From positions 1 to 37,265 of the IMG/VR virus record IMGVR_UViG_3300017766_002176: DNA of 37,265 nt; one strand, written 5' to 3'. How positions within the stretch are numbered: the first letter of the stretch is position 1; each line of letters begins with the position of its first letter. The DNA is from a virus. Taxonomy: Duplodnaviria; Caudoviricetes. The notes beneath the pieces are model-generated. The model saw nothing but the letters and a program-made list of their open reading frames with translations. It did no database searches and was not told where the DNA came from. Shown in pieces: positions 2,834-25,586 of the stretch. The translations under genes were made by a program, and so were the position numbers.

Positions 2834-2868
2834 AACCCCTCGGCGCTCCGGCTCCGGGGGGTTTCTCT
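2834..2868 (+). terminator. Probable intrinsic terminator between the convergent early cluster and primase gene
   Basis: AACCCCTCGG...CCGGGGGGTT 10-bp stem followed by TCTCT. Confidence 0.6.
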
Positions 2869-4738
2869 ATGCCGGCAGATACCACCGCAGGGCCGCGCCC
2901 TTGCCTGTGGCGTAGGCCTCCAGGGGTCCGCCCGAGGCCTTGCGCGCCAGGATGCCGGCAAGGCGGGTGATCTGTTCCTGGGCGACCTCGGGGCTCACGT
3001 CATGCGCCGGCGGCAGCATCTGGGCGGCGAGGACCGTGGATGTCACGCCCGCCTCCGCGCCGCGCGCCTTGAGGGCGGAGAGTGCAGCGCCGATGACCTT
3101 GGGGTTCAACCCGTCGTCCACATGCACCAGGGCCCGATGGTCGGCCGCGGTGATCGGCTGAAAGACCAGGTTGCTCGCCAGCTTCTTGCCCTCGAAAAAC
3201 CAGGGGGCCTGCCGGCGCTCGCCGTCCTTCACCTTCACGCAGGACATCTTGACGGTCTTCGTGACGTCGTCGCCCTCGACCTCCGCCATGGTATCAAAGC
3301 CGCCTGGCAGGGCGCTGGAGCCGCGCGCACGGCCGCCTTCGTGGCCCGTGTGGTGGATCACCAGGACGGCGGCCCCCGTGGCTTCGCTCATGGCCTGCAG
3401 CGCCTTGACGAACACGTTGGCGTCGCGGGCGTCGTTCTCGTTCATTCCCATCATCGCCTTAGACGCGGTGTCGGCGACGATCAGGGCAGGGTGGAGGCCG
3501 GCGGCGAGCAGCTGTTCCATGAACTCGACAGCGTCGTCCTCTACCAGCACCTCGGGGACGTTCGGCATGATGCGCAGCCGGGTCTCCTCGACCCCGTGGG
3601 CCAGGCACCAGGCCGATGCGCGGAGCTCCATGCCCCGGAACCCTTCACCAGCGAGATAGACCACATCGCGCGGCGGCTGCGCCTCGCGTCCATAGGCCGC
3701 AACCCCCGTGGCGACGGTCATGGCCATGTCCAGGGCGATGAAGCTCTTGTAGGACCCCGGCGGCCCGTAGAGCATGGCAAGGGACCGCTCGACCACCAGA
3801 TCAGGCAGCAGCCACTCCAACGGGGGGAGGGCGCGCATCTCGGCGAGGGTGTACGGGTGGAATTTGGAACGGCGAGCCGGCGCAGCTTCGGAGAGTAGCT
3901 TTCCGAGGGCGTCCCCGAAGACTTCTTGCGCCGGCTCAACCGCCCACGCGCCCGGCTCATTTTGAGCGTAGGCGGAGGCGTTCTCTAGTTTCGTCCTGAT
4001 GAACCCGTCCATGAACTCGGCGTCGAACGGCTCGCACCGCACGGCCCAGTGCTCCATGATCAGGTCGTGGGCGAGCTCGGGGGAGATCCCCAGGTTCAGG
4101 ACTTCACAGCAGACCACATAGGTCCGCTCGTCGCCGCCCTCCCCCTCGCGTGCCGGCGTCGCCGACTTGAGGTAGGAGGTCGCGCGGCTCACGTTGGCAG
4201 GGTGATCGAGGACTTCCGTCGAGGCCTTGGCCTTCTCTCGGGCGCGCGTGACGATGGGCGCAACCCAGGCCGGCAGCGGAGCCGGCGGCAGATCGGCGAG
4301 GTAGCTGTAGGTCCCATCTGGGGTCCGCGACGGTGGCAGCAGGACATAGGACCCGACCCCGCGCGTGTCCACCTTGAGCCCCAGCTTCTGGACGCTAGGC
4401 GGCAGGGACCCGGCGTAGTAGCGGTGGTGGCCCCCGCGCGGCGTGCGAACCATCTTCGTGGGAGGCGCTTCGCCGTGTTCGATCTGCAGGTCGGTCCAGG
4501 TGTCCTCGCCGACCGGCGGGTCAGTGTCGATCACGCATAGGCCGGAGGTCTCGGGGCTGGTGGCGACGTTGTAATCCGGGTTCTCTGACCACCAGGCGTT
4601 GATCTGGGCCACGTCAGTCGTCGCCGCGTAGACCCCGTTTTCCACGGCGGGGCGCTTGTCCATGGGGACACACGGGAATACCGCAACCCCTTGCGATGCA
4701 AGGTCTAGCGCGGCCTGATGTAAATCAGAGACTGGCAT
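2867..4738 (-). CDS. Bifunctional primase-polymerase (Prim-Pol) fused to an AAA_25/RepA-type helicase
   Basis: N-terminal GVAVFPC..KRP..ATTD..WW..PDYNVA..VIDTD and VRTPRGGHHRYY; C-terminal Walker A YGPPGSYKS, Walker B IVADT, VIHH. Start placed at ATG 4738 (alternative 4783). Confidence 0.9.
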   Translation of the reverse strand: MPVSDLHQAALDLASQGVAVFPCVPMDKRPAVENGVYAATTDVAQINAWWSENPDYNVATSPETSGLCVIDTDPPVGEDTWTDLQIEHGEAPPTKMVRTPRGGHHRYYAGSLPPSVQKLGLKVDTRGVGSYVLLPPSRTPDGTYSYLADLPPAPLPAWVAPIVTRAREKAKASTEVLDHPANVSRATSYLKSATPAREGEGGDERTYVVCCEVLNLGISPELAHDLIMEHWAVRCEPFDAEFMDGFIRTKLENASAYAQNEPGAWAVEPAQEVFGDALGKLLSEAAPARRSKFHPYTLAEMRALPPLEWLLPDLVVERSLAMLYGPPGSYKSFIALDMAMTVATGVAAYGREAQPPRDVVYLAGEGFRGMELRASAWCLAHGVEETRLRIMPNVPEVLVEDDAVEFMEQLLAAGLHPALIVADTASKAMMGMNENDARDANVFVKALQAMSEATGAAVLVIHHTGHEGGRARGSSALPGGFDTMAEVEGDDVTKTVKMSCVKVKDGERRQAPWFFEGKKLASNLVFQPITAADHRALVHVDDGLNPKVIGAALSALKARGAEAGVTSTVLAAQMLPPAHDVSPEVAQEQITRLAGILARKASGGPLEAYATGKGAALRWYLPA

Positions 4739-4748
4739 GATTTTGTGC

Positions 4749-4802
4749 TTGACGGCCCTCGGTGGCGTCCGTAAAAGGATCACGACATCGACACATTGTC
4801 AA
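4749..4802. promoter_or_regulatory. Overlapping divergent sigma70-type promoters
   Basis: + strand TTGACG-17nt-TAAAAG (4749-4777); - strand TTGACA at 4802-4797; lies in the only divergent intergenic gap of the window. Confidence 0.55.
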
Positions 4803-4816
4803 ACGGAGGACACCGA

Positions 4817-5158
4817 ATGACGACTACCCCGACCCTGCTGCGGAAATTCCGCCAGTGGACCCGAGAGGCCGACTATGGACAGGAGTTCGTCTACAGCTTC
4901 GCGGCCGATCCGCGCGACGCCAGGGACCCGGTCATCTTCGAGTATGCGCGCAAGCTGTCCGAGGGGGGCCTCGCCTTCCTCTACCAGCGCCGCCGCGCCG
5001 GCGGCTTCGACTACGTCGCCCGGCGGACCCGGGTCTTGAGCCACGAGGTTCTCGACCGAGTTTCGGAGAGCATCCCCGCACCCATCCGCAAAGAACGCCC
5101 GACCTGTGGCCGCCCCCGCAAGGGCGACGAGAGCGCGTTCCAACCCCTGGAGGCCTGA
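4817..5158 (+). CDS. Hypothetical protein, possible DNA-binding regulator
   Basis: GGAGGAC RBS at 4805; first gene after the divergent promoter; basic, with a C-terminal GRPRK AT-hook-like segment. Confidence 0.75.
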   Translation: MTTTPTLLRKFRQWTREADYGQEFVYSFAADPRDARDPVIFEYARKLSEGGLAFLYQRRRAGGFDYVARRTRVLSHEVLDRVSESIPAPIRKERPTCGRPRKGDESAFQPLEA

Positions 5159-5161
5159 ACC

Positions 5162-5668
5162 ATGACCATCATCACAACCCCCGTCCGCCTCTCGCAGGCG
5201 GTCTACTCCCAGCGCGCCCTCTGGAACCGCCGGAGCTTCGACGCCTTCCTGGAGAACCTGGGCCTGGACAACCCGTTCCGGCGGGGCACCCCGGCCAGGA
5301 AGCACGCGAGCACCGACCGGGCCGCCCGCAAGGAGGAAGCCCGCCGCCGGGCCCGTGACGGCGAGGTCGTCGCCGCGTTCGCCAAGCCGGGGCATCACCC
5401 GCACCAGCGCCGACCCACGGCCGAGCAGACCGCGGCTTGGGAACGCGGAAATTCATCTGACATCATCGCCGTGAACTACGCGGAGGTGGAAGCCCGGGTC
5501 CTCGCCGCGCGGGCCCCCAGCGAACTGCAGCATATCGTCGTCGAGCGCGAGGGGGCCTGGTGGGTTGCCATCGCGGTTCATGACGAGATCGACCTGTCTG
5601 CCGCTCGTGGCCCCTACGCCGCGAAGAAGACCGCCAACCGCGTCGCCCGCACGCTGAACGGGGGCTGA
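5162..5668 (+). CDS. Hypothetical protein with segments resembling family A polymerase motifs A and C
   Basis: GGAGG RBS; IIAVNYAEVEARVLA and IAVHDEI. Confidence 0.75.
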   Translation: MTIITTPVRLSQAVYSQRALWNRRSFDAFLENLGLDNPFRRGTPARKHASTDRAARKEEARRRARDGEVVAAFAKPGHHPHQRRPTAEQTAAWERGNSSDIIAVNYAEVEARVLAARAPSELQHIVVEREGAWWVAIAVHDEIDLSAARGPYAAKKTANRVARTLNGG

Positions 5669-5669
5669 C

Positions 5670-5843
5670 ATGGCCTGCAGCGTCTGCGGCCGGGCGCACA
5701 TCCCGGAACGGTGCAAGGACGGGCAGATCGAGTATCTGTCGGGGCCCTACCCTTGTCCGCTTCGGGATGCCGCCGAGCCGGCTGCAGACCTGTGGACCAT
5801 AGAGCCCGAGCCAACCGCTGAAGGCCTGGAGGACTTGTTTTGA
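5670..5843 (+). CDS. Small putative zinc-binding protein (57 aa), absent from the ORF track
   Basis: Manual translation MACSVCGRAHIPERCKDGQIEYLSGPYPCPLRDAAEPAADLWTIEPEPTAEGLEDLF*; starts 1 nt after the upstream stop and its TGA overlaps the helicase TTG start. Confidence 0.7.
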   Translation: MACSVCGRAHIPERCKDGQIEYLSGPYPCPLRDAAEPAADLWTIEPEPTAEGLEDLF

Positions 5844-7477
5844 AGCTCGACTACAACCCGTCCAATGGTGCCTTCCTCCTCCGGGTCCCCCGTGGCCCGG
5901 GGGTGGACATCAACACGCTCATGTCCGAACACGGGCTCGACTTGAGCACCGCCTCCTCGACCCCGGCCGAGGCGGTGTTGTTCACCCGGGAACCCTACTG
6001 CGCCGTGACCTTCTGGGAGTATGCGACGCCGCGCGCCCAGGAGGTGCTGATCGGCCTGCAGCAGGAGATCGCCCTGTCCTGGCGGAAGGAGGGGGCCGGC
6101 CACATTGACGTGCCCCTGGACGAGGAGCTCGCCCCCTTCCAGATCGCCGGCGTCCAGTACGCCAAGCGCCGGCAGAACACCTTGATCGGCGACGTGCCTG
6201 GCCTGGGGAAGACCCCGATGGCCATTGCCTTCGCGAATGAGATCCGCGCCGAGCGCACCCTGGTGATCTGCCCCGCGAACATCCGCCTCCAGTGGGCGAA
6301 GAACATCCGCCGCTGGTCGACCATGGAATATCCCTACGTGGTCTACCCCATCCTCCACGGCCGGCATGGGGTCCACCCGACCGCCGCCTGGACGGTGGTG
6401 AGCTACGACCTGGCGCGCACCGCCCCCATCGGCAAGGCCCTGGCGCGCGGCGAGTACGACCTCCTGATCCTCGACGAGGCGCACTACACGAAGGAGGTCA
6501 GCAGCCTGCGCAGCCGGGCGATCTGGGGAGGCGGTGAGAACCGAGTGTTCGAGGCCCTGGCGTCGCGCGCTAAGGCGATCCTGGCGCTGACGGGCACACC
6601 CCTACCGAACCGGCCGCGCGAAGCCTACACGCTCGCTCGGGGGCTCTGCTTCGATGCCATCGACTTCATGTCGGAGGACAGCTTCCGGGACCGCTTCAAC
6701 CCGAGCCTCAAGCGCGAGACCGCCGAGGGCAAGATCTACATCGACGAGCGGTCGGGCCGGCACGGGGAGCTCCAGTCTCGGATGCGCGCTAACTTCATGG
6801 TGCGGCGCGAGAAGTACGGGACGAACGGCGTCGGCTACCAGCTGAAGCTCATGCACATCCCCAATTATGACATCGTCCACGTCGACATGACGGGGGCGGT
6901 TAAGGCCGCCCTGAAGGCCGAGAGCATGTTGGACATCGACCCCGAGACCCTGGAGGGCGCGGACGCCGAGACCCTAGGACACGTCGCCGTGGTCCGCCGC
7001 ATGATGGGCATCGCTATCGCGCCCCTGGCCGCCGACTACGTCCGCATGTGCCTCGACGGCGGCGAGGAGAAGATCGTCCTGTTCGGACACCATGTCGAGG
7101 TGCTGAACATCCTGGAGAAGGCGCTCGCTGAGTACGGAGTGGTCCGCATCGACGGCTCACACTCGGCCGCCCAGAAGCAGAAGAAAGTCGACGACTTCAT
7201 CCGCAACCCAAGGCTCGGCGTCTGCCTGGGCAACATGCTCTCCATGGGCACGGGGACGGACGGGCTACAGGAGGTCGCCTGGCACGCCATCTTCGCTGAG
7301 AGCGACTGGACCCCAGGCACCAACCAGCAGGCTGTCGACCGCCTCGACCGCGGCGGCCAGGACACCCAGGTCCAGGCTGACTTCCTGGTCGCGCCTGGGT
7401 CCTTCAGCGAGAAGGTTCTCGCCGGCGCGCTGAGAAAATTGCAGACCACAAACAAAGCTCTTGACCGGCGGATGTAG
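5840..7477 (+). CDS. SNF2-like superfamily 2 helicase/translocase
   Basis: GDVPGLGKT, LILDEAH, LTGTP, RIDGS, QAVDRLDRGGQ; TTG start with GGAGG RBS. Confidence 0.92.
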   Translation: MKLDYNPSNGAFLLRVPRGPGVDINTLMSEHGLDLSTASSTPAEAVLFTREPYCAVTFWEYATPRAQEVLIGLQQEIALSWRKEGAGHIDVPLDEELAPFQIAGVQYAKRRQNTLIGDVPGLGKTPMAIAFANEIRAERTLVICPANIRLQWAKNIRRWSTMEYPYVVYPILHGRHGVHPTAAWTVVSYDLARTAPIGKALARGEYDLLILDEAHYTKEVSSLRSRAIWGGGENRVFEALASRAKAILALTGTPLPNRPREAYTLARGLCFDAIDFMSEDSFRDRFNPSLKRETAEGKIYIDERSGRHGELQSRMRANFMVRREKYGTNGVGYQLKLMHIPNYDIVHVDMTGAVKAALKAESMLDIDPETLEGADAETLGHVAVVRRMMGIAIAPLAADYVRMCLDGGEEKIVLFGHHVEVLNILEKALAEYGVVRIDGSHSAAQKQKKVDDFIRNPRLGVCLGNMLSMGTGTDGLQEVAWHAIFAESDWTPGTNQQAVDRLDRGGQDTQVQADFLVAPGSFSEKVLAGALRKLQTTNKALDRRM

Positions 7478-10678: not shown

Positions 10679-12664
10679 TTGGCCTACGTCGTCGACTTCG
10701 AGAGCAAGAGCCGCTGCGACCTGAAGAAGGCCGGAGCCTGGCGCTATGCTGAACACCCGACGACGGAGGTTCTGTGCCTGTCCTACGGGCCGGTCAACAG
10801 TGAGGCTTTGTACACCTGGTTCCCGGGACAGTCGCAGCCGCTCTCGCTCCTGGAGGCAATCGAAGCCGGAGAGATCTTCATCGCGCACAACGCCGGCTTC
10901 GAGCAGGCTATGTGGGCCAGACACATGGTCGACCGCTACAACTGGCCGGCTATCCCGGTTCGCCAGTGGCACGACACCCAGGCTCGGTGCGCCAGCATCG
11001 CCATCCCCCAGGCCCTGGAGAAGGTCGGTAAGGCCCTGCAGCTGACGACCGAGAAGGACATGGAGGGCAACCGCCTGACCCTGTCTCTGTCTCGGGTCGA
11101 CAAGAAGACCGGCGAGCTCCCCGAGGTCACGCCGTTTACTCTCCTGCGCGTCGGGCAATACTGCGAGGTCGACGTCAAGGAGCAGCGCGAGCTCCACCGC
11201 CGGATCGGCTGGCTCGAACCCGACGAGCGCCAGGTTTGGCTCCTGGACCAGCGCACCAACCAGCGCGGCGTCCGCCTCGACGTGCCCCTGATCGCCGCCA
11301 TGCGCCAGGTCGTGGACCGGGGCTCGGCCCCGCTGGCAGAGGAGTTCGCCAGGCTGACCGGCGGCCTGAAGATGACCCAGCGGGATAAGGTCATGGCGTG
11401 GATGCTCGCCCGTGGCGTGATGATGCCGAACATGACGAAGGAGACCCTGGCGGCCGTGCTAGGGGAGACCGACGAAGGCGAGGAGATCGACGAGGACGAC
11501 CGCCTGGACCTGGATCTCCCGGCCGAGGTCGAGCGCGCCCTGCGCATCCGCCAGCTGATCGGTTCCTCCTCCATCAAGAAGCTCGGCGCGATGGAGGCCT
11601 GCGTCTGCGACGACGGCCGCGCCCGGGGTCTGCTCGCCTACCATGCCGCCAGCACGGGGCGCTTCGCCGGCCGGCTGATCCAGCCGCAGAACTTCCCGCG
11701 CGGCAACGATGTCGAGATCGACATTGATGGTAAGATCGCTGCGATCATGACGGGAGACCCGGACTTTGTCTACATGGCGCTCGGCTACCAGCCTGTTGAA
11801 ACAGTTGTGGCTTCTCTGCGCCACGCTATTATTTCTAACCCTGATCGCTATCTGGTGGCGGGCGACTTCGCGGGGATCGAGGCGCGTCTGGCCCTGGCCC
11901 TAGCCGGCCAGCATGACAAGACCGAGCTCATGGCGAGCGGCGTGGACGTCTACTGTGACATGGCGGCTACGATCTACGGTCACCCGGTCAACAAGAAGGA
12001 ACACCCCGAGAAGCGCCAGATCGGCAAGAACTCCGTGCTCGGCCTCGGCTTCGGCATGGGTGCCCCGAAGTTCCACTCCCGGTACGCCAAGGACCAGCCC
12101 CTGGAGTTCATTCAGAGCGTCGTGGCGGCCTATCGCAAGAACTGGGCACCGAAGGTCCCGGACCTGTGGAAGGGCCTGGAGCACGCGGCGATCCGGGCGG
12201 TCTGGGACGGCGGCGCGCACGAGGCCTACGGGGTCTCCTACCGCAAGGTCGATCAGTGGCTGGTGGCGACCTACCCGGACGGCTCGAAGCAATGGTACTT
12301 CGACCCGCGGCCGACCCGCCAGGCCATGCCCTGGGACCCCGAGGACATCCGCCGGTCCTGGACCTACCGCCAGGTCAAGCAGGGCCGCCTGATCACCATC
12401 AACGCCTACGGTGCCCTGCTCACCGAGAACTACGCGCAGCACATGGCGCGCCAGCTGCTAATCGACGCCTGGAAGAAGGCCGAGAAGGAGCGCATACCAA
12501 TCGTGCTGACCGTCCACGACGAGCTCGTTGGCGAACCGGAAAGCTCTAGGCAGGACGCCGAAACCGTGCTAGCTCAGATCATGGAGGACCGACCTGACTG
12601 GGCACGCGAGATCAAGCTGCCTGTCGCCGTTGAAACCTGGGCCGGAGACCGATACCGCAAATGA
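10679..12664 (+). CDS. Family A DNA polymerase with 3'-5' exonuclease (APSE/BPP-1-like)
   Basis: Exo I VVDFES, Exo II AHNAGFE, Exo III YCEVDV; motif A GDFAGIEAR, motif B RQIGKNSVLGLGFGMG, motif C TVHDEL; TTG start with AGGAGG. Confidence 0.95.
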   Translation: MAYVVDFESKSRCDLKKAGAWRYAEHPTTEVLCLSYGPVNSEALYTWFPGQSQPLSLLEAIEAGEIFIAHNAGFEQAMWARHMVDRYNWPAIPVRQWHDTQARCASIAIPQALEKVGKALQLTTEKDMEGNRLTLSLSRVDKKTGELPEVTPFTLLRVGQYCEVDVKEQRELHRRIGWLEPDERQVWLLDQRTNQRGVRLDVPLIAAMRQVVDRGSAPLAEEFARLTGGLKMTQRDKVMAWMLARGVMMPNMTKETLAAVLGETDEGEEIDEDDRLDLDLPAEVERALRIRQLIGSSSIKKLGAMEACVCDDGRARGLLAYHAASTGRFAGRLIQPQNFPRGNDVEIDIDGKIAAIMTGDPDFVYMALGYQPVETVVASLRHAIISNPDRYLVAGDFAGIEARLALALAGQHDKTELMASGVDVYCDMAATIYGHPVNKKEHPEKRQIGKNSVLGLGFGMGAPKFHSRYAKDQPLEFIQSVVAAYRKNWAPKVPDLWKGLEHAAIRAVWDGGAHEAYGVSYRKVDQWLVATYPDGSKQWYFDPRPTRQAMPWDPEDIRRSWTYRQVKQGRLITINAYGALLTENYAQHMARQLLIDAWKKAEKERIPIVLTVHDELVGEPESSRQDAETVLAQIMEDRPDWAREIKLPVAVETWAGDRYRK

Positions 12665-14371: not shown

Positions 14372-14893
14372 ATGAGCTTCGATCTCCACCCCATCATCGA
14401 CGAGGAGCACTGGGGCCTCGCCTGCCGGCACATCGGGTCGCTCTACCGGCCGCCCGATCTCGTGATCTCGCCTGACGGGAACCCCTACCTCTACCGCTGG
14501 CACGTCATCCCGCGGAACCTGGACGCCAACATCTACTTCCACGTCCAGGTCGCCAGTGACCCCGAGCGGCCCCTGCACGACCACCCGTGGGACAACACGT
14601 CGATCATCCTCGCCGGCGGCTACAACGAGATCGTGCAGACCCCCGGCGCGTTCCGCCAGGTCTACACCCGGCGCGTCGGCGACATCGTCCACCGGCCGGC
14701 GGAGCAGGCCCATCGCCTGGTCCTGCCGGGGCACCTCAAGTACACCATGACCCTGTTCGTCACCGGGCCCAAGGTCCGCGAGTGGGGCTTCTGGTGCTAC
14801 GACCACCGGGGCCGCAGCGTCTGGGTCCCGCAACACCAGTGCATCGTCAACAACCCGGACGGCACGTCCGTTTTCAAGGAGCCAGACCTGTGA
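14372..14893 (+). CDS. Cupin-fold (double-stranded beta helix) metalloprotein
   Basis: LHDHPW..SIILAGGYNE and GDIVHRPAEQAHRL..TLFVTGP give a His-x-His...His metal set; AGGAGG RBS. Confidence 0.75.
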   Translation: MSFDLHPIIDEEHWGLACRHIGSLYRPPDLVISPDGNPYLYRWHVIPRNLDANIYFHVQVASDPERPLHDHPWDNTSIILAGGYNEIVQTPGAFRQVYTRRVGDIVHRPAEQAHRLVLPGHLKYTMTLFVTGPKVREWGFWCYDHRGRSVWVPQHQCIVNNPDGTSVFKEPDL

Positions 14894-20398: not shown

Positions 20399-20613
20399 AC
20401 GGCAATCGGGTTGCCGATGGTCGTCACGTCGCCCGTGAGCTCCTGGATCGTCACCCCGGCGACATAGCTCTGCGTCGCGCCGCCGAAGACCCCGAGGGCG
20501 CGCAGGTTTATGAGCTCCGCGTTCCCTTTCCCGGGGGAGATACGCCCGACGACGTAGCCCGGGGGGATCGGCGTGCGGACGCCGCGGAGGCGGATGTTCG
20601 GGGTGGTAGCCAT
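20146..20613 (-). CDS. Short tail fibre protein (proximal/anchor part)
   Basis: Follows the large ejection protein; LTGDVT..TIANGAVTYAKMQ and QEISLGTGLSMSGTTL fibre motifs; ATGA overlap with the next gene. Confidence 0.75.
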   Translation of the reverse strand: MATTPNIRLRGVRTPIPPGYVVGRISPGKGNAELINLRALGVFGGATQSYVAGVTIQELTGDVTTIGNPIAVATIANGAVTYAKMQNVSAASKLLGRGSTGSGVVQEISLGTGLSMSGTTLNAAGSGWAPVTTGAEPPVLVSDGAGHLIMVAYSP

Positions 20614-23600
20614 TACGCCAACGGCACCTGGCCGGCGTTCTCAGCGACCGGCGGCGGGGCGGCCGGGAAGGTGCCCTCGGCCGGAGCTTCCTGATCGGGG
20701 ATCGGGACGTTCGGCTGCTCGGCGGCGGCCTTCATGTCCGCGCGGATCTGCTCCGTGACCTCGATCCCCATCTTGGCGGCGGCGATCATCTGCGGGTAGA
20801 TGTCGTCGACCAGCTGGCGCTTCTCGTCGGGGGTCAGGTCTTCGTTCGCGTTGATGCCTTGGACGGCGGCGGACATGGTCATGATCGCCTCCTTGATCGG
20901 CGTTACGGCCTGCGCATACTGCCCTGCCGCGGCCGTAAATTCAACGTCCTCAGTGTCGCCGGTGCCGCCCTGCGCGCGGCGCATCGCCAGCTGGAAGTCC
21001 TTCTGCTTCGTCTCCAGGGTCTTCATGCCGTCGAAGAAGTCCTGGATCGGCTGCGCGGACATGCCCGGGGTGCGAACCAGGAAGCTGCTGACGAACGGGG
21101 TGTCCTCCAACTCCCACGGCTTCTTGCTGTCCGAGTGCGGGAGATCCAGGGCCTGCAGCACGAGGCCGCCGATGGTCCCGGACCAGCCCTTGACCAGGTG
21201 GTCGACCTGGATGGGGGAGAAGTCGGCGATGTCGAGCCCGGGGGGCCCCATGGCGCGGGCGATAGCCTTGGCGGTCTCGCTCGTGGACGTGGTGTATTGC
21301 ATGTAGCCCGACGCCCCCTCCATGGACGCCGGCACGAGCGGCCGTCCGGTGAAGAAGTTGTGGTTCGAGATGATCTCCGCCGGCGTCTCGACTATAGCCG
21401 GAGCCAGGGGCGGGACGAAGTCGTTCAGGAAGGCCTTCGCCGTCTTGTCGAAAGCGTGCGGGTCCTTGGCCGCCAGGTGGTCGAGCACCCGGGTCACCAG
21501 GCCGCCGAAGATGAACCCCGGGCCCTGCGGATAGCGGAGCCGGAAGCGGTGGCCGCCGATGGACGGCGTGATGTAGAACGTGTCGCGCTGCCAGCGTGGG
21601 AGGTCGGAGTACCGCTCGCCCTCGGGGAGCTCCTGGTCCTGCAGCCAGTTCAGCATGTAGAGCCCGATGGTCGGCAGAGAGATGACGGCCGCGGCGTGGA
21701 GCGCCGTGTCGAGCGGCCGGGCTTTGACGGCCTCTCCGACTTGCTTCAGGCCCAGCAGGGCCGGCCGGAAGAAGGGCGTGATCTGGGCCATGCCATTCAC
21801 GATATTCGCGGTGCCGCGCTCGGCGAAGTCGAGGTAGGCCTTGCGCGCCATCGTGGCGGCCTTGATGCTCTCGATACCCTTGCCTTCCGCGTAGCTCATG
21901 TAGCCGAGCCGGGAGGCTGCGTCGATCCGCTCCGAGACGATCTGGGCGAACTCGACGGGATGCTTGACCACGTTTGCGACGTTGCCCCACACGCCGGTCT
22001 TCTCGAACAGGCTGTCGACGTCGCGCTTCAGGTAGTCGAGATCCATCTCGGCCAGGCTCGCGCCCAGACCGCCCTTCGCCATGAAGTCCTGGAAGACGTC
22101 GTCCTGCTTGAGGACGTGGAACAGGCCCTTGACCAGGGTCACGTAGGGCGGCGGGTGCAGGGGGTCGAGCACGAAGGCGGCGATCTGGTCGCGCAGGACG
22201 TTCCGCACGGGGAAGTCGGGCGTCAGGGTGATGCCGGCGCGCTGGAGGGCGGCGAAGCTCTCCGCCGTCTTCATGAAGATGTTCGCCTGCCCGGGGCTGT
22301 CAGCCTTGCGCAGGAGCTCCGCCAGCTGCGGGCTCTTGGTCGTCCACCGCTCGGGCTTGCCGTCGCGGAAGAAGATGAAGTCATTCGGCCCCCAGGCCTT
22401 GGTGGCACGCTCGGCGACGAGGGGTCCGTAGGCCTCCAGGTTCTCCGGCGTCGCCTCGATCCCGTAGGGCTTGAAGACATTCGACCCCGCCTCGGCGATG
22501 GTCTCCTTGGGGTCCCAGGCGATCCGCTTGACGTCTAGGTTCTCCAGCTGCCCGCGCTCCGCCATCCCGACCACATGGCCGATGGCCCGGTTCCGGTCAG
22601 CCATCTTGATCAGGACGCGCATGTTGTCGATGGACGCCTTGAGCGGGTCGACGATGGAGCGGTCGGAGCCCTCCATGGTGTGGATGGAGTTCCGCGGATT
22701 GAAGCCACGGCCGCGGGCGCTGAAGCTCGCGTCGTCGCCCATGATGCGGCGCATGGACACGTAGGTCGGGTTGTTCTTGACCATGGCGTCTACCTGGGCC
22801 TGGCTGAACATGCCCGAGCCCTTGGCGTAGTCGAGCGCACCGTTCATGGTGTCGGTGAAGATCTTCGAGGCGCGCTCGTACTTCCTGACCGCGGCCTTGT
22901 TCACCGCCAGGGAGAACGCGGCGCGGGGGTTCAGCCCGGTCTCCACGCCCTGCGCGGCCTTGTCGGTGGTGCGCTTGGCGAGCATCCATGCCAGCCAGCC
23001 GTCCATGTCGCCGCCGTCCTCCTTGAGGGCGCGGGCGGCCTTCATGAAGGAGGGGCTGTCCTTGATCACGTCCAGGGTGATCGGGTCCACCAGGCCGTGC
23101 TGCACGAACACGCTGGCGCGGGCGTCGGAGGCGTAGGTCTGGCGGAACATGTCCTCCGTTCCCAGCTGGGTGTTCCGGTCATATTCGCCGGCGCGGATCA
23201 GCTGGTCGTCGATCCGGCGGGCGGGCGTCAGTTCGCTGATCGACTGGGTGAGCAGGAGGTCCGGGTCAATCAGGCTCTTGGGCTTGGGGGCCTCGCCGAC
23301 GTTCCGCAGGATCTCCTCGGTCAGGGTGCGCTCGTCGGCCGTCTCCCAGAAGCCGGGCTTTCCGGGCTCGTCTGCGCCGCCGCCAGCCGCACCACCAGGA
23401 GGCCGACCGCCACCGCCGCCCTCGCCGCCACCGGCCTTGGTCTCGGGGACGTAGTTCGGGATCTTGAGTTGTCCACCGTCGCCACCTCCGGGCATTTCGC
23501 CGCCGGAGCGTCGCCGCCCGTTGGCCAGATATTTTTGCGTCTCCTTGGGGAGGAAGCTCTCGTCCCGCGCCGCCGGCTCGCTCTCGTAGCGGATGCCGCT

Positions 23601-25586
23601 GCGGACGTTCCTGTCCGGGATCGCCTTCAGGCGGGTGCCCTCGCCCTTCGTCATATACTGGCTCGCGCGGCCGGGGCCGGCATTGTAGGCGATGGCAATG
23701 GCCGTCATGTCGCCCGCGTAGCGGCGGTGGAGGTCAGCGACGATCTTGTCGTGGACCCGCTTATTCACGGCCGGGTCGAACAGGGTCGAGACGTCGAAGT
23801 CCTTGCCCATGTACTGGCGGGCGGTGCCAGGCATGATCTGGTGTTTGCCGATGGCCCCGACCGGCGACACGCTATCGTCGCGGGAGCCTTCGAGCTTCAC
23901 CAGGAGCTCACTCGCCTCCTGGGGGGTAACGGCGTACTTTGTAACAGCCGGCCGCGGGGTCACGTTCTTCATCTCGGTGACCAGGCTTTCGTCGATGTTG
24001 ACGCCAAGCCGGCTCTGGGCTTCCGCCTGGGACATCGCACCGCGAGTGGTTCCAGCCGGCGTAGCGGCAGAGAGCTCGTCGCGCCACTTCGCAGCGATGG
24101 CTTCCCAGACCACCGGATGCTCCTGGGCGACCCTAGAGAACTCCTGCTGCATACGGCGGAGCGCGAACTCTTTATCACCGCCCCGGCCTTCAATTGCGTC
24201 CGCGGCATTGTCCACCAGGGCCTGGATACGGCGGACGATCCGGTTGCCCGTGAGATCGTTCTCCGAAGCGAACTTCTGGGTAGCAACAGCAAGATCGTCG
24301 AGGGCGCGGACGTGGACAGCCGGGTCGAGCGAATTGATCGCTGACGCGATGTCACCGCCGCTTACAAACGATGCCGCCGCGTCGATGCTGCCAGCGTCGA
24401 TAGCTTCGTTTGCCGGATACGCTCCAGCTACAGCTTCCGGGGCCTTGGTGCTCGGCTTGAATGGGGCCGGAGGCTCGGCTCGGGCGGCCGGCTTGAACGG
24501 TTCCGGGTCCGCCAGGGCGGCGGCGCGGAAGTTCGGCGTCACGGGGTTGCCGTTCACGTCCTGGCTGAAGACCTCCTGGCGGAAGGCTGGGTCCTGCTTC
24601 GCGCGCGAGACGGCCTCCCACGGTGGGACCCCGGTCTCCACGTAGATCTTCTGGAGGTTGTACTGCACGCGGCGGGTCGCGTCGCGCGAGGCGGTGTAGC
24701 CCTTGCCGGTGGCGGCAGCGGCCGTGTGGAAGCCCAGCACCAGGATCGCGGCGGTGCCGAAGTCCTCGGCGTCCGGGACTTCCCCATCAAGCGCGCCGGC
24801 GACAGCGGTGCCGGTGACCGCCTGGGTCAGGGCGTCCGCACCCGCGGCGACGAATGGCTTCGCGCCCATCGCAGCGACCTTGCCGCCGACCGCACCGCCA
24901 ACTGGAGCGGAGACCGCGCCGATGACGCCTTGCTTCGCCGTGGCTTCCAAGTTGCCAATCGCGAGGGCCGCGGCGTCGCGCCAGCTGCGGACGTTGCCAT
25001 CCCGGACCTCGTAGGCGTCCAGGAGCCCCTGGCGCATCCCCTCTGGCAGAGCGGCCGATCCGAAGCCCGCGCCGCCCACAGCGAGGACTGGGACCGCTAT
25101 AGGGGCTGCTGGGCCGGTAGCCGCGCCCGCCGCGCTACCCGTCGCCGCGCCGCCGACAAAGCCGGCGATGGTAGCCGGAAGGTCGCCGACCATCTGGCCG
25201 CCGGCATAGAGCGCCTGGTTCAGGAGATCGGCGTCTTCTGGATGCAGAGCATCCGGTTTACGCCCGCTGCGCGAGAGATTGATCGAGAGCCCGGTGACGG
25301 ACATGTTGAACCCGGCGGCCAGGGCGTCGAGCGGACCCATCTTCTCGCCGCCCGCTGCGGCGCGATTGCCGGCAACCTGGCTTACGAGCCCGGGAGCCTT
25401 CGGATCGCCGATGCCCCAGTAGGAGTTGATCTCGCTCGGCTTGAAGCCCGCGACCTGGAGTGACCGGGTCTTCTGCGCGGTCCAGTCCGATAGCGCGGCG
25501 TCGTCGAAGCCCGCGGCCTTCAGGCGGTTGTACTCCGCCACGCCATCCGGGATCTTGTGCTCTGTCGCTAGGCCGCTGCCGCTCAT
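20613..25586 (-). CDS. Large internal virion (ejection) protein with SLT lytic transglycosylase domain and LPD38-like C-terminus
   Basis: 1657 aa; LEGS...GAIGKHQIMPGTA...AYNAGPG...PKETQKY; C-terminal SNHNFFTGRPLVP..SPIQVDHLVKG; third ejection gene position. Confidence 0.85.
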   Translation of the reverse strand: MSGSGLATEHKIPDGVAEYNRLKAAGFDDAALSDWTAQKTRSLQVAGFKPSEINSYWGIGDPKAPGLVSQVAGNRAAAGGEKMGPLDALAAGFNMSVTGLSINLSRSGRKPDALHPEDADLLNQALYAGGQMVGDLPATIAGFVGGAATGSAAGAATGPAAPIAVPVLAVGGAGFGSAALPEGMRQGLLDAYEVRDGNVRSWRDAAALAIGNLEATAKQGVIGAVSAPVGGAVGGKVAAMGAKPFVAAGADALTQAVTGTAVAGALDGEVPDAEDFGTAAILVLGFHTAAAATGKGYTASRDATRRVQYNLQKIYVETGVPPWEAVSRAKQDPAFRQEVFSQDVNGNPVTPNFRAAALADPEPFKPAARAEPPAPFKPSTKAPEAVAGAYPANEAIDAGSIDAAASFVSGGDIASAINSLDPAVHVRALDDLAVATQKFASENDLTGNRIVRRIQALVDNAADAIEGRGGDKEFALRRMQQEFSRVAQEHPVVWEAIAAKWRDELSAATPAGTTRGAMSQAEAQSRLGVNIDESLVTEMKNVTPRPAVTKYAVTPQEASELLVKLEGSRDDSVSPVGAIGKHQIMPGTARQYMGKDFDVSTLFDPAVNKRVHDKIVADLHRRYAGDMTAIAIAYNAGPGRASQYMTKGEGTRLKAIPDRNVRSGIRYESEPAARDESFLPKETQKYLANGRRRSGGEMPGGGDGGQLKIPNYVPETKAGGGEGGGGGRPPGGAAGGGADEPGKPGFWETADERTLTEEILRNVGEAPKPKSLIDPDLLLTQSISELTPARRIDDQLIRAGEYDRNTQLGTEDMFRQTYASDARASVFVQHGLVDPITLDVIKDSPSFMKAARALKEDGGDMDGWLAWMLAKRTTDKAAQGVETGLNPRAAFSLAVNKAAVRKYERASKIFTDTMNGALDYAKGSGMFSQAQVDAMVKNNPTYVSMRRIMGDDASFSARGRGFNPRNSIHTMEGSDRSIVDPLKASIDNMRVLIKMADRNRAIGHVVGMAERGQLENLDVKRIAWDPKETIAEAGSNVFKPYGIEATPENLEAYGPLVAERATKAWGPNDFIFFRDGKPERWTTKSPQLAELLRKADSPGQANIFMKTAESFAALQRAGITLTPDFPVRNVLRDQIAAFVLDPLHPPPYVTLVKGLFHVLKQDDVFQDFMAKGGLGASLAEMDLDYLKRDVDSLFEKTGVWGNVANVVKHPVEFAQIVSERIDAASRLGYMSYAEGKGIESIKAATMARKAYLDFAERGTANIVNGMAQITPFFRPALLGLKQVGEAVKARPLDTALHAAAVISLPTIGLYMLNWLQDQELPEGERYSDLPRWQRDTFYITPSIGGHRFRLRYPQGPGFIFGGLVTRVLDHLAAKDPHAFDKTAKAFLNDFVPPLAPAIVETPAEIISNHNFFTGRPLVPASMEGASGYMQYTTSTSETAKAIARAMGPPGLDIADFSPIQVDHLVKGWSGTIGGLVLQALDLPHSDSKKPWELEDTPFVSSFLVRTPGMSAQPIQDFFDGMKTLETKQKDFQLAMRRAQGGTGDTEDVEFTAAAGQYAQAVTPIKEAIMTMSAAVQGINANEDLTPDEKRQLVDDIYPQMIAAAKMGIEVTEQIRADMKAAAEQPNVPIPDQEAPAEGTFPAAPPPVAENAGQVPLA

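Follow-up and report, generated by a model that had tools for sequence, protein, structure and literature searches.

Family A DNA polymerase motif look-alikes in the variable linker of a small phage protein family, with a possible role as decoys

Genomic setting of the P0001 gene

The window (the whole stretch of DNA that was analysed, 37,265 nucleotides of the IMG/VR record IMGVR_UViG_3300017766_002176) is a GC-rich tailed-phage contig. Its head and tail genes lie on the strand opposite to a rightward replication run, which contained an ORF at 4817-5158, the P0001 ORF, a 57-aa ORF, an SNF2 helicase, a DUF2800 nuclease, an Enc34-type SSB, a family A polymerase (10679-12664), a resolvase and an exonuclease. 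P0001 is located upstream of both the helicase and the polymerase. The closest cultured phages were distant, at 34% for the polymerase (to Ralstonia phage DU_RP_II) and about 30% for the helicase. The features of the locus are as follows:

2867-4783, leftward: bifunctional primase-helicase
5149-5153, + strand: ribosome-binding site GGAGG, 8 nt ahead of the ATG (from the sequence)
5162-5668, + strand: P0001, a 168-aa accessory gene, second gene of the rightward replication operon
5180-5344, + strand: conserved N-terminal block, basic and helical, covering about residues 7-61 (SQRAL ... GTP.R ... DRAARK) (alignments, model)
5333-5530, + strand: variable linker, residues 58-123 (model, motif scores)
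5459-5509, + strand: residues 100-116, resembling motif A of family A polymerases (PSSM, single-query scoring, models)
5528-5665, + strand: C-terminal three-strand sheet and helix, residues 123-168, conserved (models)
5576-5590, + strand: VHDEI, which resembles motif C, at the turn predicted between strands 132-139 and 142-152; present in P0001 and in no other member
10679-12664, + strand: resident intact family A DNA polymerase, with the motif A Asp at 11864 and the motif C VHDE at 12512

The P0001 gene is real. Its GC3 was 0.88, against 0.87 for the polymerase and 0.91 for the helicase, and its codon bias was like that of its neighbours. No sigma-70-type promoter was found in 4600-6000. No RNA data set was listed as containing the region; the single DNA data set that was, identical to it throughout, may be its source. 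The protein had no Pfam match and no PHROG match at E<=1, and no NCBIfam family.

Among the other genes of the window, the 57-aa ORF between P0001 and the helicase (5670-5843) is Cys/His-rich, has an acidic tail that ends L-F, and showed no significant family. A cupin-type gene at the end of the replication operon (14372-14893) matched PHROG 4786, 'cysteine dioxygenase' (E=9e-41), and a 1657-aa virion protein (20613-25586) contained an SLT transglycosylase and an LPD38 polyvalent-protein domain. The 195-aa ORF at 1007-1594 produced no match in Pfam, PHROG, NCBIfam or PDB, and it has a stretch that we take to be helix-hairpin-helix-like, as in DNA glycosylases.

Scaffold, linker and polymerase motif look-alikes in the P0001 family

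Two protein collections, of 5.8 and 1.84 billion sequences, yielded 14 relatives, giving a family of 15 members. P0016 (E=0.016) and P0017 (E=6.3), both weak N-terminal matches, were counted among the 15, and P0007, a low-complexity repeat protein, was left out. A Pfam scan of the relatives other than P0016 and P0017 showed no family of note. The members have the basic N-terminal block in common; the C-terminal domain was present in 11/15 members and ends G-P-Y-x-x-K-K-T-A-N-R. The linker was 24-142 residues long in the members with both flanking blocks, and every significant motif A or motif B look-alike of the family fell within it.

Searches for the loci of the relatives found none in viral contigs (0/54 candidate stretches) or genomes (0/109), and in metagenomes they returned the window's own contig only (1/468 candidates). 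A pattern made from the C-terminal domain gave 0 matches, the P0001 protein and its motif had no match by tblastn in 50,697 phage records, and a locus search with the window's helicase found one distant locus.

The original prediction had read DIIAVNYAEVEARVLA at 5459-5506 as a parallel of polymerase motif A with Asn105 at the place of the catalytic Asp, and VHDEI at 5576-5590 as a parallel of motif C, downstream and in the correct order. A check of the sequence agreed on these points and on the short spacing, with 23 residues between Ala115 and Val139. Asn105 and Asp141 are 36 residues apart, compared with 218 (D396-D614) in the resident polymerase. The pattern D/N-x-x-E is a helix cap, so Asn105 is an unremarkable substitution; the Asp was kept at the catalytic position in 4/6 family cassettes and lost in 2/6. 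The motif was also rightly described as no close copy of the resident polymerase DNA, sharing 24/48 nt with the resident motif A, and is thus not a recent copy. Compared with 120 motif-holding loci, the best agreement of the motif DNA was 35/51 nt. The strict motif A pattern occurred twice in the six frames of the window, in P0001 and in the polymerase.

From 44 non-redundant phage polymerases, PSSMs were built for the upstream TGR motif as well as for motifs A, B and C, with rows affected by inteins or misalignment omitted (4 for B, 1 for C), and each member was scored against 2,000 shuffles. By the motif A PSSM, which is partly circular in that its source polymerases were chosen with a family-derived pattern, P0001 scored 27.5 bits, P0005 26.1, P0004 17.1, P0010 14.5 and P0009 10.9 (all p<=0.0005); with P0008 (p=0.01), motif A was found in 6/15 members. 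For motif B, the scores were 14.2 bits in P0003 (p<=0.0005), 10.4 in P0009 (p=0.001) and -1.5 in P0004 (p=0.0065, weak), while the best score in P0001 was -19.7 bits (p=0.66). A, B or both were present in 7/15 members and neither in 8/15. The order of the motifs varied, B preceding A in P0004 and A preceding B in P0009. Another 34 genes in the window (10,716 aa) reached at most 7.5 bits for A and 2.7 for B, and reversed proteins all stayed below -9 bits. In 499 ORFs of the fetched loci, 0/98,866 windows scored at least 10.4 bits for B, and 3 reached the score of P0004.

As a check on circularity, the phage's own motifs were used as single BLOSUM queries, and ORFs matching the core pattern of motif A were removed from the control. 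With motif A of the resident polymerase as the query, P0001 was equalled by 1/99,773 control windows, and so was P0005; with motif B, P0003 was matched by 0/98,288 control windows, P0004 by 6 and P0009 by 31. P0001 and P0005 come close to the lowest-scoring true polymerases (minimum 28.0 bits) and lie above 40/41 cellular matches to the core pattern (maximum 18.5), the lone exception being L217, itself a small multi-motif ORF. On these scores, the motif A look-alike of P0001 is clearly non-random.

P0005 and P0006 were identical at 122/127 aligned residues, and the 13-residue indel between them is the cassette, with five substitutions besides. The cassettes of P0001 and P0004 agreed at 12/13 residues in proteins 47-55% identical over their whole length. 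The polymerase HMM gave positive-scoring matches at motifs A, B and C only. Position 4 of the motif was acidic in 5/6 family cassettes, in 0/154 polymerase matches and in 8/14 non-polymerase matches (14 in which two families count three times each), which would fit adaptation to a free-standing helix. The family consists of a scaffold with a variable linker, and its non-random A and B look-alikes have been gained and lost. An alternative offered with the original prediction, that these motifs move as micro-modules, was supported and extended by motif B in the same linker of relatives and by the clean cassette indel.

Other pieces were seen in some linkers. Past its motif A cassette, P0008 lacks the C-terminal domain of the family and resembles a translation in a different frame, perhaps through a frameshift or assembly error. 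The long linker insertion of P0009 (about residues 95-187) includes a Cys/His-rich piece and, after the A and B look-alikes, a G-x-S-x-G-K-S that we take to be like a Walker A loop. Linker residues 66-116 of P0001 had no PHROG match at E<=1; residues of about 79-93 (5396-5440), with P-H-Q-R-R and P-T-A-E-Q-x-A-A, presumably recall helicase/terminase Q-motifs.

Against chance, the HDE of P0001 appears marginal. By PSSM it scored 2.0 bits (p=0.025), a score equalled by 3/34 window genes and 29/102,359 control windows and reached by about 4% of control proteins. The exact [VIL]HDE occurred twice in the six frames of the window (P0001 and the polymerase). It arose in 0.3% of shuffles, and the 108,347 control residues contained it 4 times, including once in another ORF with such motifs. 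Residues 128-150 aligned to the motif C region of the polymerase HMM at E=0.23 among 16 sequences. HDE was found in 1/11 members having the C-terminal region, and the surrounding stretch differed in every member. Of the two motifs that homologues had been expected to conserve, the E-x-R of motif A was kept in 6/15 members, but HDE was not kept beyond P0001. Nor were motifs A and C co-conserved in short proteins, as a search with residues 95-150 recovered P0001 alone (1/27 candidates). Motif A closely followed by [VIM]HD was present in other unrelated small proteins (gp221, L113 and L156). A scan for motif A followed within a short gap by HD[E/D/A/G/V] was not a clean test, since 42/48 matches were polymerases, hit out of frame or at the D-x-H-D-E motif of one of their helices; the remaining six were gp221 (3 loci), L156, L160 (out of frame, a tail protein) and L170 (likely chance). 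The chances are about even that HDE is a second captured piece on a hairpin turn or a product of chance.

Predicted structure and polymerase pieces in other small phage proteins

The full-length AlphaFold model of P0001 (10 alignment rows) had a pTM of 0.32, with confident ends and a pLDDT of about 42-54 in linker residues 71-120, the linker being predicted to be floppy. It contained N-terminal helices at 10-32 and 53-65, a helix at 106-116, strands at 123-129, 132-139 and 142-152, and a helix at 155-165, the C-terminal domain (123-168) having a pLDDT of 81-95. A model of the fragment 95-168 (8 rows, pTM 0.55) showed the same elements, again without a strand ahead of Asn105. The strand at residues 100-105 was absent from both models, with a pLDDT there of about 45-68 and shallow alignments. 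The two segments had been predicted to pack as in a palm; from these shallow alignments, neither model paired the motif A strand with the HDE hairpin.

Five fold searches gave no polymerase among the matches listed (best Z 4.3 and 4.4), a missing fold match being no exclusion of a fold, and a profile search for a solved relative of P0001 found none. The C-terminal domain matched 2kvt and 3bid at Z 3.8-4.2 (rmsd 2.2-4.4, 45-52 aligned), tied with unrelated folds. It is weakly like YaiA, NMB1088 and DUF1508-type small domains, which is not diagnostic, and its Atlas feature score of 0.81 is a lead only. The proposal that the R-Y-x-V strand of the family is the counterpart of the strand that precedes motif A in the resident polymerase was rejected (alignment probability 2.6%). 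The evidence from the predicted models weighs against a palm in P0001. The idea of an inactive palm mimic carrying both motifs was not supported, with HDE confined to one member, no motif A strand modelled and no polymerase among the fold matches listed.

A pattern derived from the cassettes was matched by polymerases in 112 and by other proteins in 8 of 120 viral loci (the best 120 of about 240). With Glu at position 4, the pattern matched 13 viral loci, none of them a full polymerase, compared with 0 and 0 matches for two scrambled patterns used as controls. The core D-F-x-E-I-E-x-R-V-L-A is a generic capped amphipathic helix, so these controls understate the background. In 596 Gb of cellular genomes the Glu-position-4 pattern matched 41 loci, mostly ordinary helices of unrelated proteins, and 3/13 viral matches belong to one ordinary-helix family; single core matches therefore prove little. 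Outside the P0001 family, the cases that appear convincing are those with a second polymerase piece (gp221, L123 and L217).

The gp221 proteins of phiCbK-like phages are 81-83 aa long, and that of phiCbK matched Pfam PF00476 at E=1e-12 in 83 aa. In gp221, 55 contiguous residues align to Pol I and nearly all of the protein is polymerase-derived. It was present in 26/26 Caulobacter phage records listed and was labelled 'putative Pol I DNA polymerase, palm domain' in GenBank in 2012; no report of its function was found in the literature searched. Across four alleles (six pairs, not independent), pN/pS was about 0.1-0.2 in motif codons and about 0.3-0.7 elsewhere. Between L124 and L130, motif codons showed 2.5/79.8 nonsynonymous and 6.5/25.2 synonymous differences, against 26.2/107.5 and 14.8/30.5, respectively, elsewhere. 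The motif codons of gp221 are under purifying selection. It is uncertain whether gp221 should be described as 'motif A plus motif C', as its HDE could derive from other polymerase segments. The gp221-type ORFs of 78-83 aa (L185:2501-2746; L124, L130, L133 and L184) lie directly behind a GcrA-like gene.

PHROG 12116 gave weak matches that covered the cassette in P0004, P0005 and P0010 (E=0.17, 0.12 and 0.007, respectively; 22-33 of 81 positions). P0001 had no match to it at E<=1, and its segment before motif A scored at best -1.2 bits (p=0.77).

L123 (1249-1797) matched PHROG 17 (E=1e-6) and scored 17.8 bits for the upstream motif, L217 (1345-1548) is a 67-aa ORF with several polymerase pieces seen by eye, and L119 (99-620) matched the head maturation protease PHROG 53 (E=0.001). 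Unrelated small ORFs with a motif A look-alike and other pieces were observed at L123, L217, L204 (about 1501), L119, L156 (935-1600), L113 (106-630), L122 (1411-1884) and L127 (1309-1962). The pieces strung together with the look-alike included the upstream TGR motif, a motif B-like Y-G and head-protease pieces, and others that, by eye, we take to be terminase Walker/nuclease, helicase and Cas4-type nuclease motifs. The phage family A polymerases at L023, L064, L109 and L111 are apparently interrupted by inteins inside motif B (by eye).

Interpretation of the motif-bearing linker

Like the family A DNA polymerases (PF00476), P0001 has a motif A with E-x-R and the preceding hydrophobic stretch, an HDE in the right order, and motif B look-alikes in its relatives. 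Unlike them, it is 168 aa long without fingers, thumb or exonuclease, has Asn at the motif A Asp, gave no profile match at E<=1, and is not predicted to form a palm. It resembles phiCbK gp221 (JX100813, PHROG 12116) in that both are small phage proteins in which a copy of motif A has Glu at position 4 and is followed by an HDE. In the P0001 family, however, the motif is a cassette of 13-17 residues that some members lack, and the scaffold around it is unrelated. By the tests used here, P0001 appears to be neither a polymerase nor a member of PHROG 12116.

From the sequence comparisons, we tentatively favour, at a little under an even chance, the reading that P0001 is a non-enzymatic accessory protein whose motif-bearing linker may serve as a decoy for a host anti-phage factor that recognises the phage polymerase. 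Pieces of polymerase genes would have been captured by recombination into the linker of the family and retained by selection on the protein, for what they present. P0001 would be expressed early, ahead of the polymerase, as the gene order suggests, and would bind the host sensor without activating it; the most likely beneficiary would be the phage's own family A polymerase (10679-12664). The decoy proposal draws on the A look-alikes in 6/15 members and on B in P0003, P0009 and weakly P0004, all in the linker. The retrieval of polymerases by the cassette pattern, the clean indel between P0005 and P0006 and the acidic position 4 also count for it, as do the small unrelated phage proteins with several polymerase pieces (gp221, L123 and L217), the selection on the gp221 motif codons and the existence of a sensor class, Avs19, that reads phage family A polymerases. 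Against it, a piece of 12-20 residues is a poor match for a sensor that reads a core fold via a large surface, and the hydrophobic residues of the motif pieces are buried in the intact polymerase. The cassette is dispensable, because 8/15 members have no A or B look-alike, and the selection test comes from gp221, which is another family than that of P0001.

Avs19 is reported to be a STAND NTPase that the family A polymerases of phages activate and E. coli Pol I does not, with the catalytic Asp dispensable (PMC12803255), and it requires the core polymerase domain (PMC12803255, PMC13581612). Avs19 and its kin recognise core folds via large surfaces, with no Avs19-polymerase model given there (PMC12803255 section 11). 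Motif-reading defences exist, since Lit and CapRel detect short capsid-protein motifs, as noted in the same paper (PMC12803255). Avs19 is a possible target of a decoy, not a relative of P0001, and no motif-sized inhibitor of it was found in the available parts of PMC12803255 and PMC13581612. The statement of an editorial (PMC13728456) on aRES as a T7 DNA polymerase sensor was not relied on, as the main text of the preprint does not contain 'DNA polymerase'.

In the accessible portion of a report on Bodo saltans virus, ankyrin-repeat ORFs carry catalytic-domain fragments of essential enzymes, including DNA polymerase, and are proposed as decoys for host antiviral factors, a suggestion rather than a test (PMC5871332). 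The P0001 family is alike in having a fragment of the catalytic region of an essential viral enzyme on an unrelated scaffold; it differs in that Bodo saltans virus is a eukaryotic giant virus with an ankyrin scaffold and an expanded paralogue family (PMC5871332, same portion). The P0001 scaffold is not ankyrin, having no Pfam family and consisting of predicted helices and one three-strand-helix domain. No description of phage motif-display proteins was found in the openly accessible full-text literature, including passages of PMC13728456, 10.1101/2025.06.06.658234, 10.1101/2023.04.06.535777 and 10.64898/2026.01.28.702374.

A broader form of the decoy proposal, put forward more guardedly, is that phages might encode a widespread, so far undescribed class of counter-defence proteins, whose conserved scaffolds display exchangeable copies of the best-conserved motifs from the phages' own core enzymes, swapped like antigenic cassettes to absorb pattern-recognition sensors. 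The P0001 family, with A, B and possibly C, would be one member, and the cassettes would map sensor epitopes.

It is unlikely, though worth serious weight, that the cassettes are relics of recombination in a linker where insertions are tolerated and fragments of conserved genes accumulate without function. Active-site motifs would then be over-represented either as the sole recognisable pieces or through homing endonucleases of introns or inteins that cut polymerase genes at these motifs, the broken ends being captured. This would agree with the absence of the cassette in 8/15 members and its clean loss in P0006, with the wide range of linker lengths, with the loss of the catalytic Asp in 2/6 cassettes, and with the inteins in motif B of some fetched polymerases. 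It is harder to reconcile with cassettes that are all in frame with the scaffold, with polymerase HMM matches at motifs A, B and C only, with the near-identical cassettes of P0001 and P0004 in diverged proteins, with residues kept while the DNA diverged from any polymerase gene seen, and with the purifying selection on the gp221 motifs.

We consider it improbable that the motif peptides, rather than being an immune decoy, tune or block replication by binding something that family A polymerases normally have as a partner or substrate. Candidates would be a replication protein of the host or of a rival phage, a chaperone, a protease, or DNA or a nucleotide together with the basic N-terminal block. 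That block is indeed very basic, P0001 lies in the replication operon ahead of the helicase, SSB and polymerase, and the C-terminal fold is weakly like small nucleic-acid-binding domains (all below significance). However, motifs A-C are not known to act as partner-docking sites. The exchange of A and B in one slot fits the display of targets better than a single partner interface, as do the non-polymerase look-alikes in other such genes (L119, with its head-protease match).

Chance convergence on a generic capped amphipathic helix, with a chance HDE, is very unlikely and, for motifs A and B, seems largely refuted. Unrelated cellular proteins do match the core pattern, and some control proteins do reach the HDE score, but the motif A scores of P0001 and P0005 approach the true-polymerase minimum and exceed nearly all of these cellular matches, and the motif B look-alikes of relatives are independent of the pattern used.

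In the palm, motif C forms a hairpin turn followed by a strand and helix. The right motif order, the HD at a predicted hairpin turn followed by strand and helix, and the alignment of residues 128-150 to the motif C region notwithstanding, a mini-palm in which the strand and helix of motif A would lie against the HDE hairpin and rebuild the palm surface is highly improbable, given HDE in a single member, the same C-terminal domain without either motif in P0006 and P0012-P0015, and residues 100-105 that are not a strand in the best full-length or fragment model.

Bacterial sensors aim at conserved phage proteins because phages cannot mutate them, and the question touched here is how phages with family A polymerases evade such sensors. 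Even as relics, the cassettes account for short proteins annotated 'DNA polymerase', PHROG 12116 among them, and show that active-site motifs move from one phage gene to an unrelated one in units of 40-60 nt. If they are decoys, they would offer an escape route of general use and already chart the epitopes that are sensed, and phiCbK gp221 provides a cultured system for the decoy idea.
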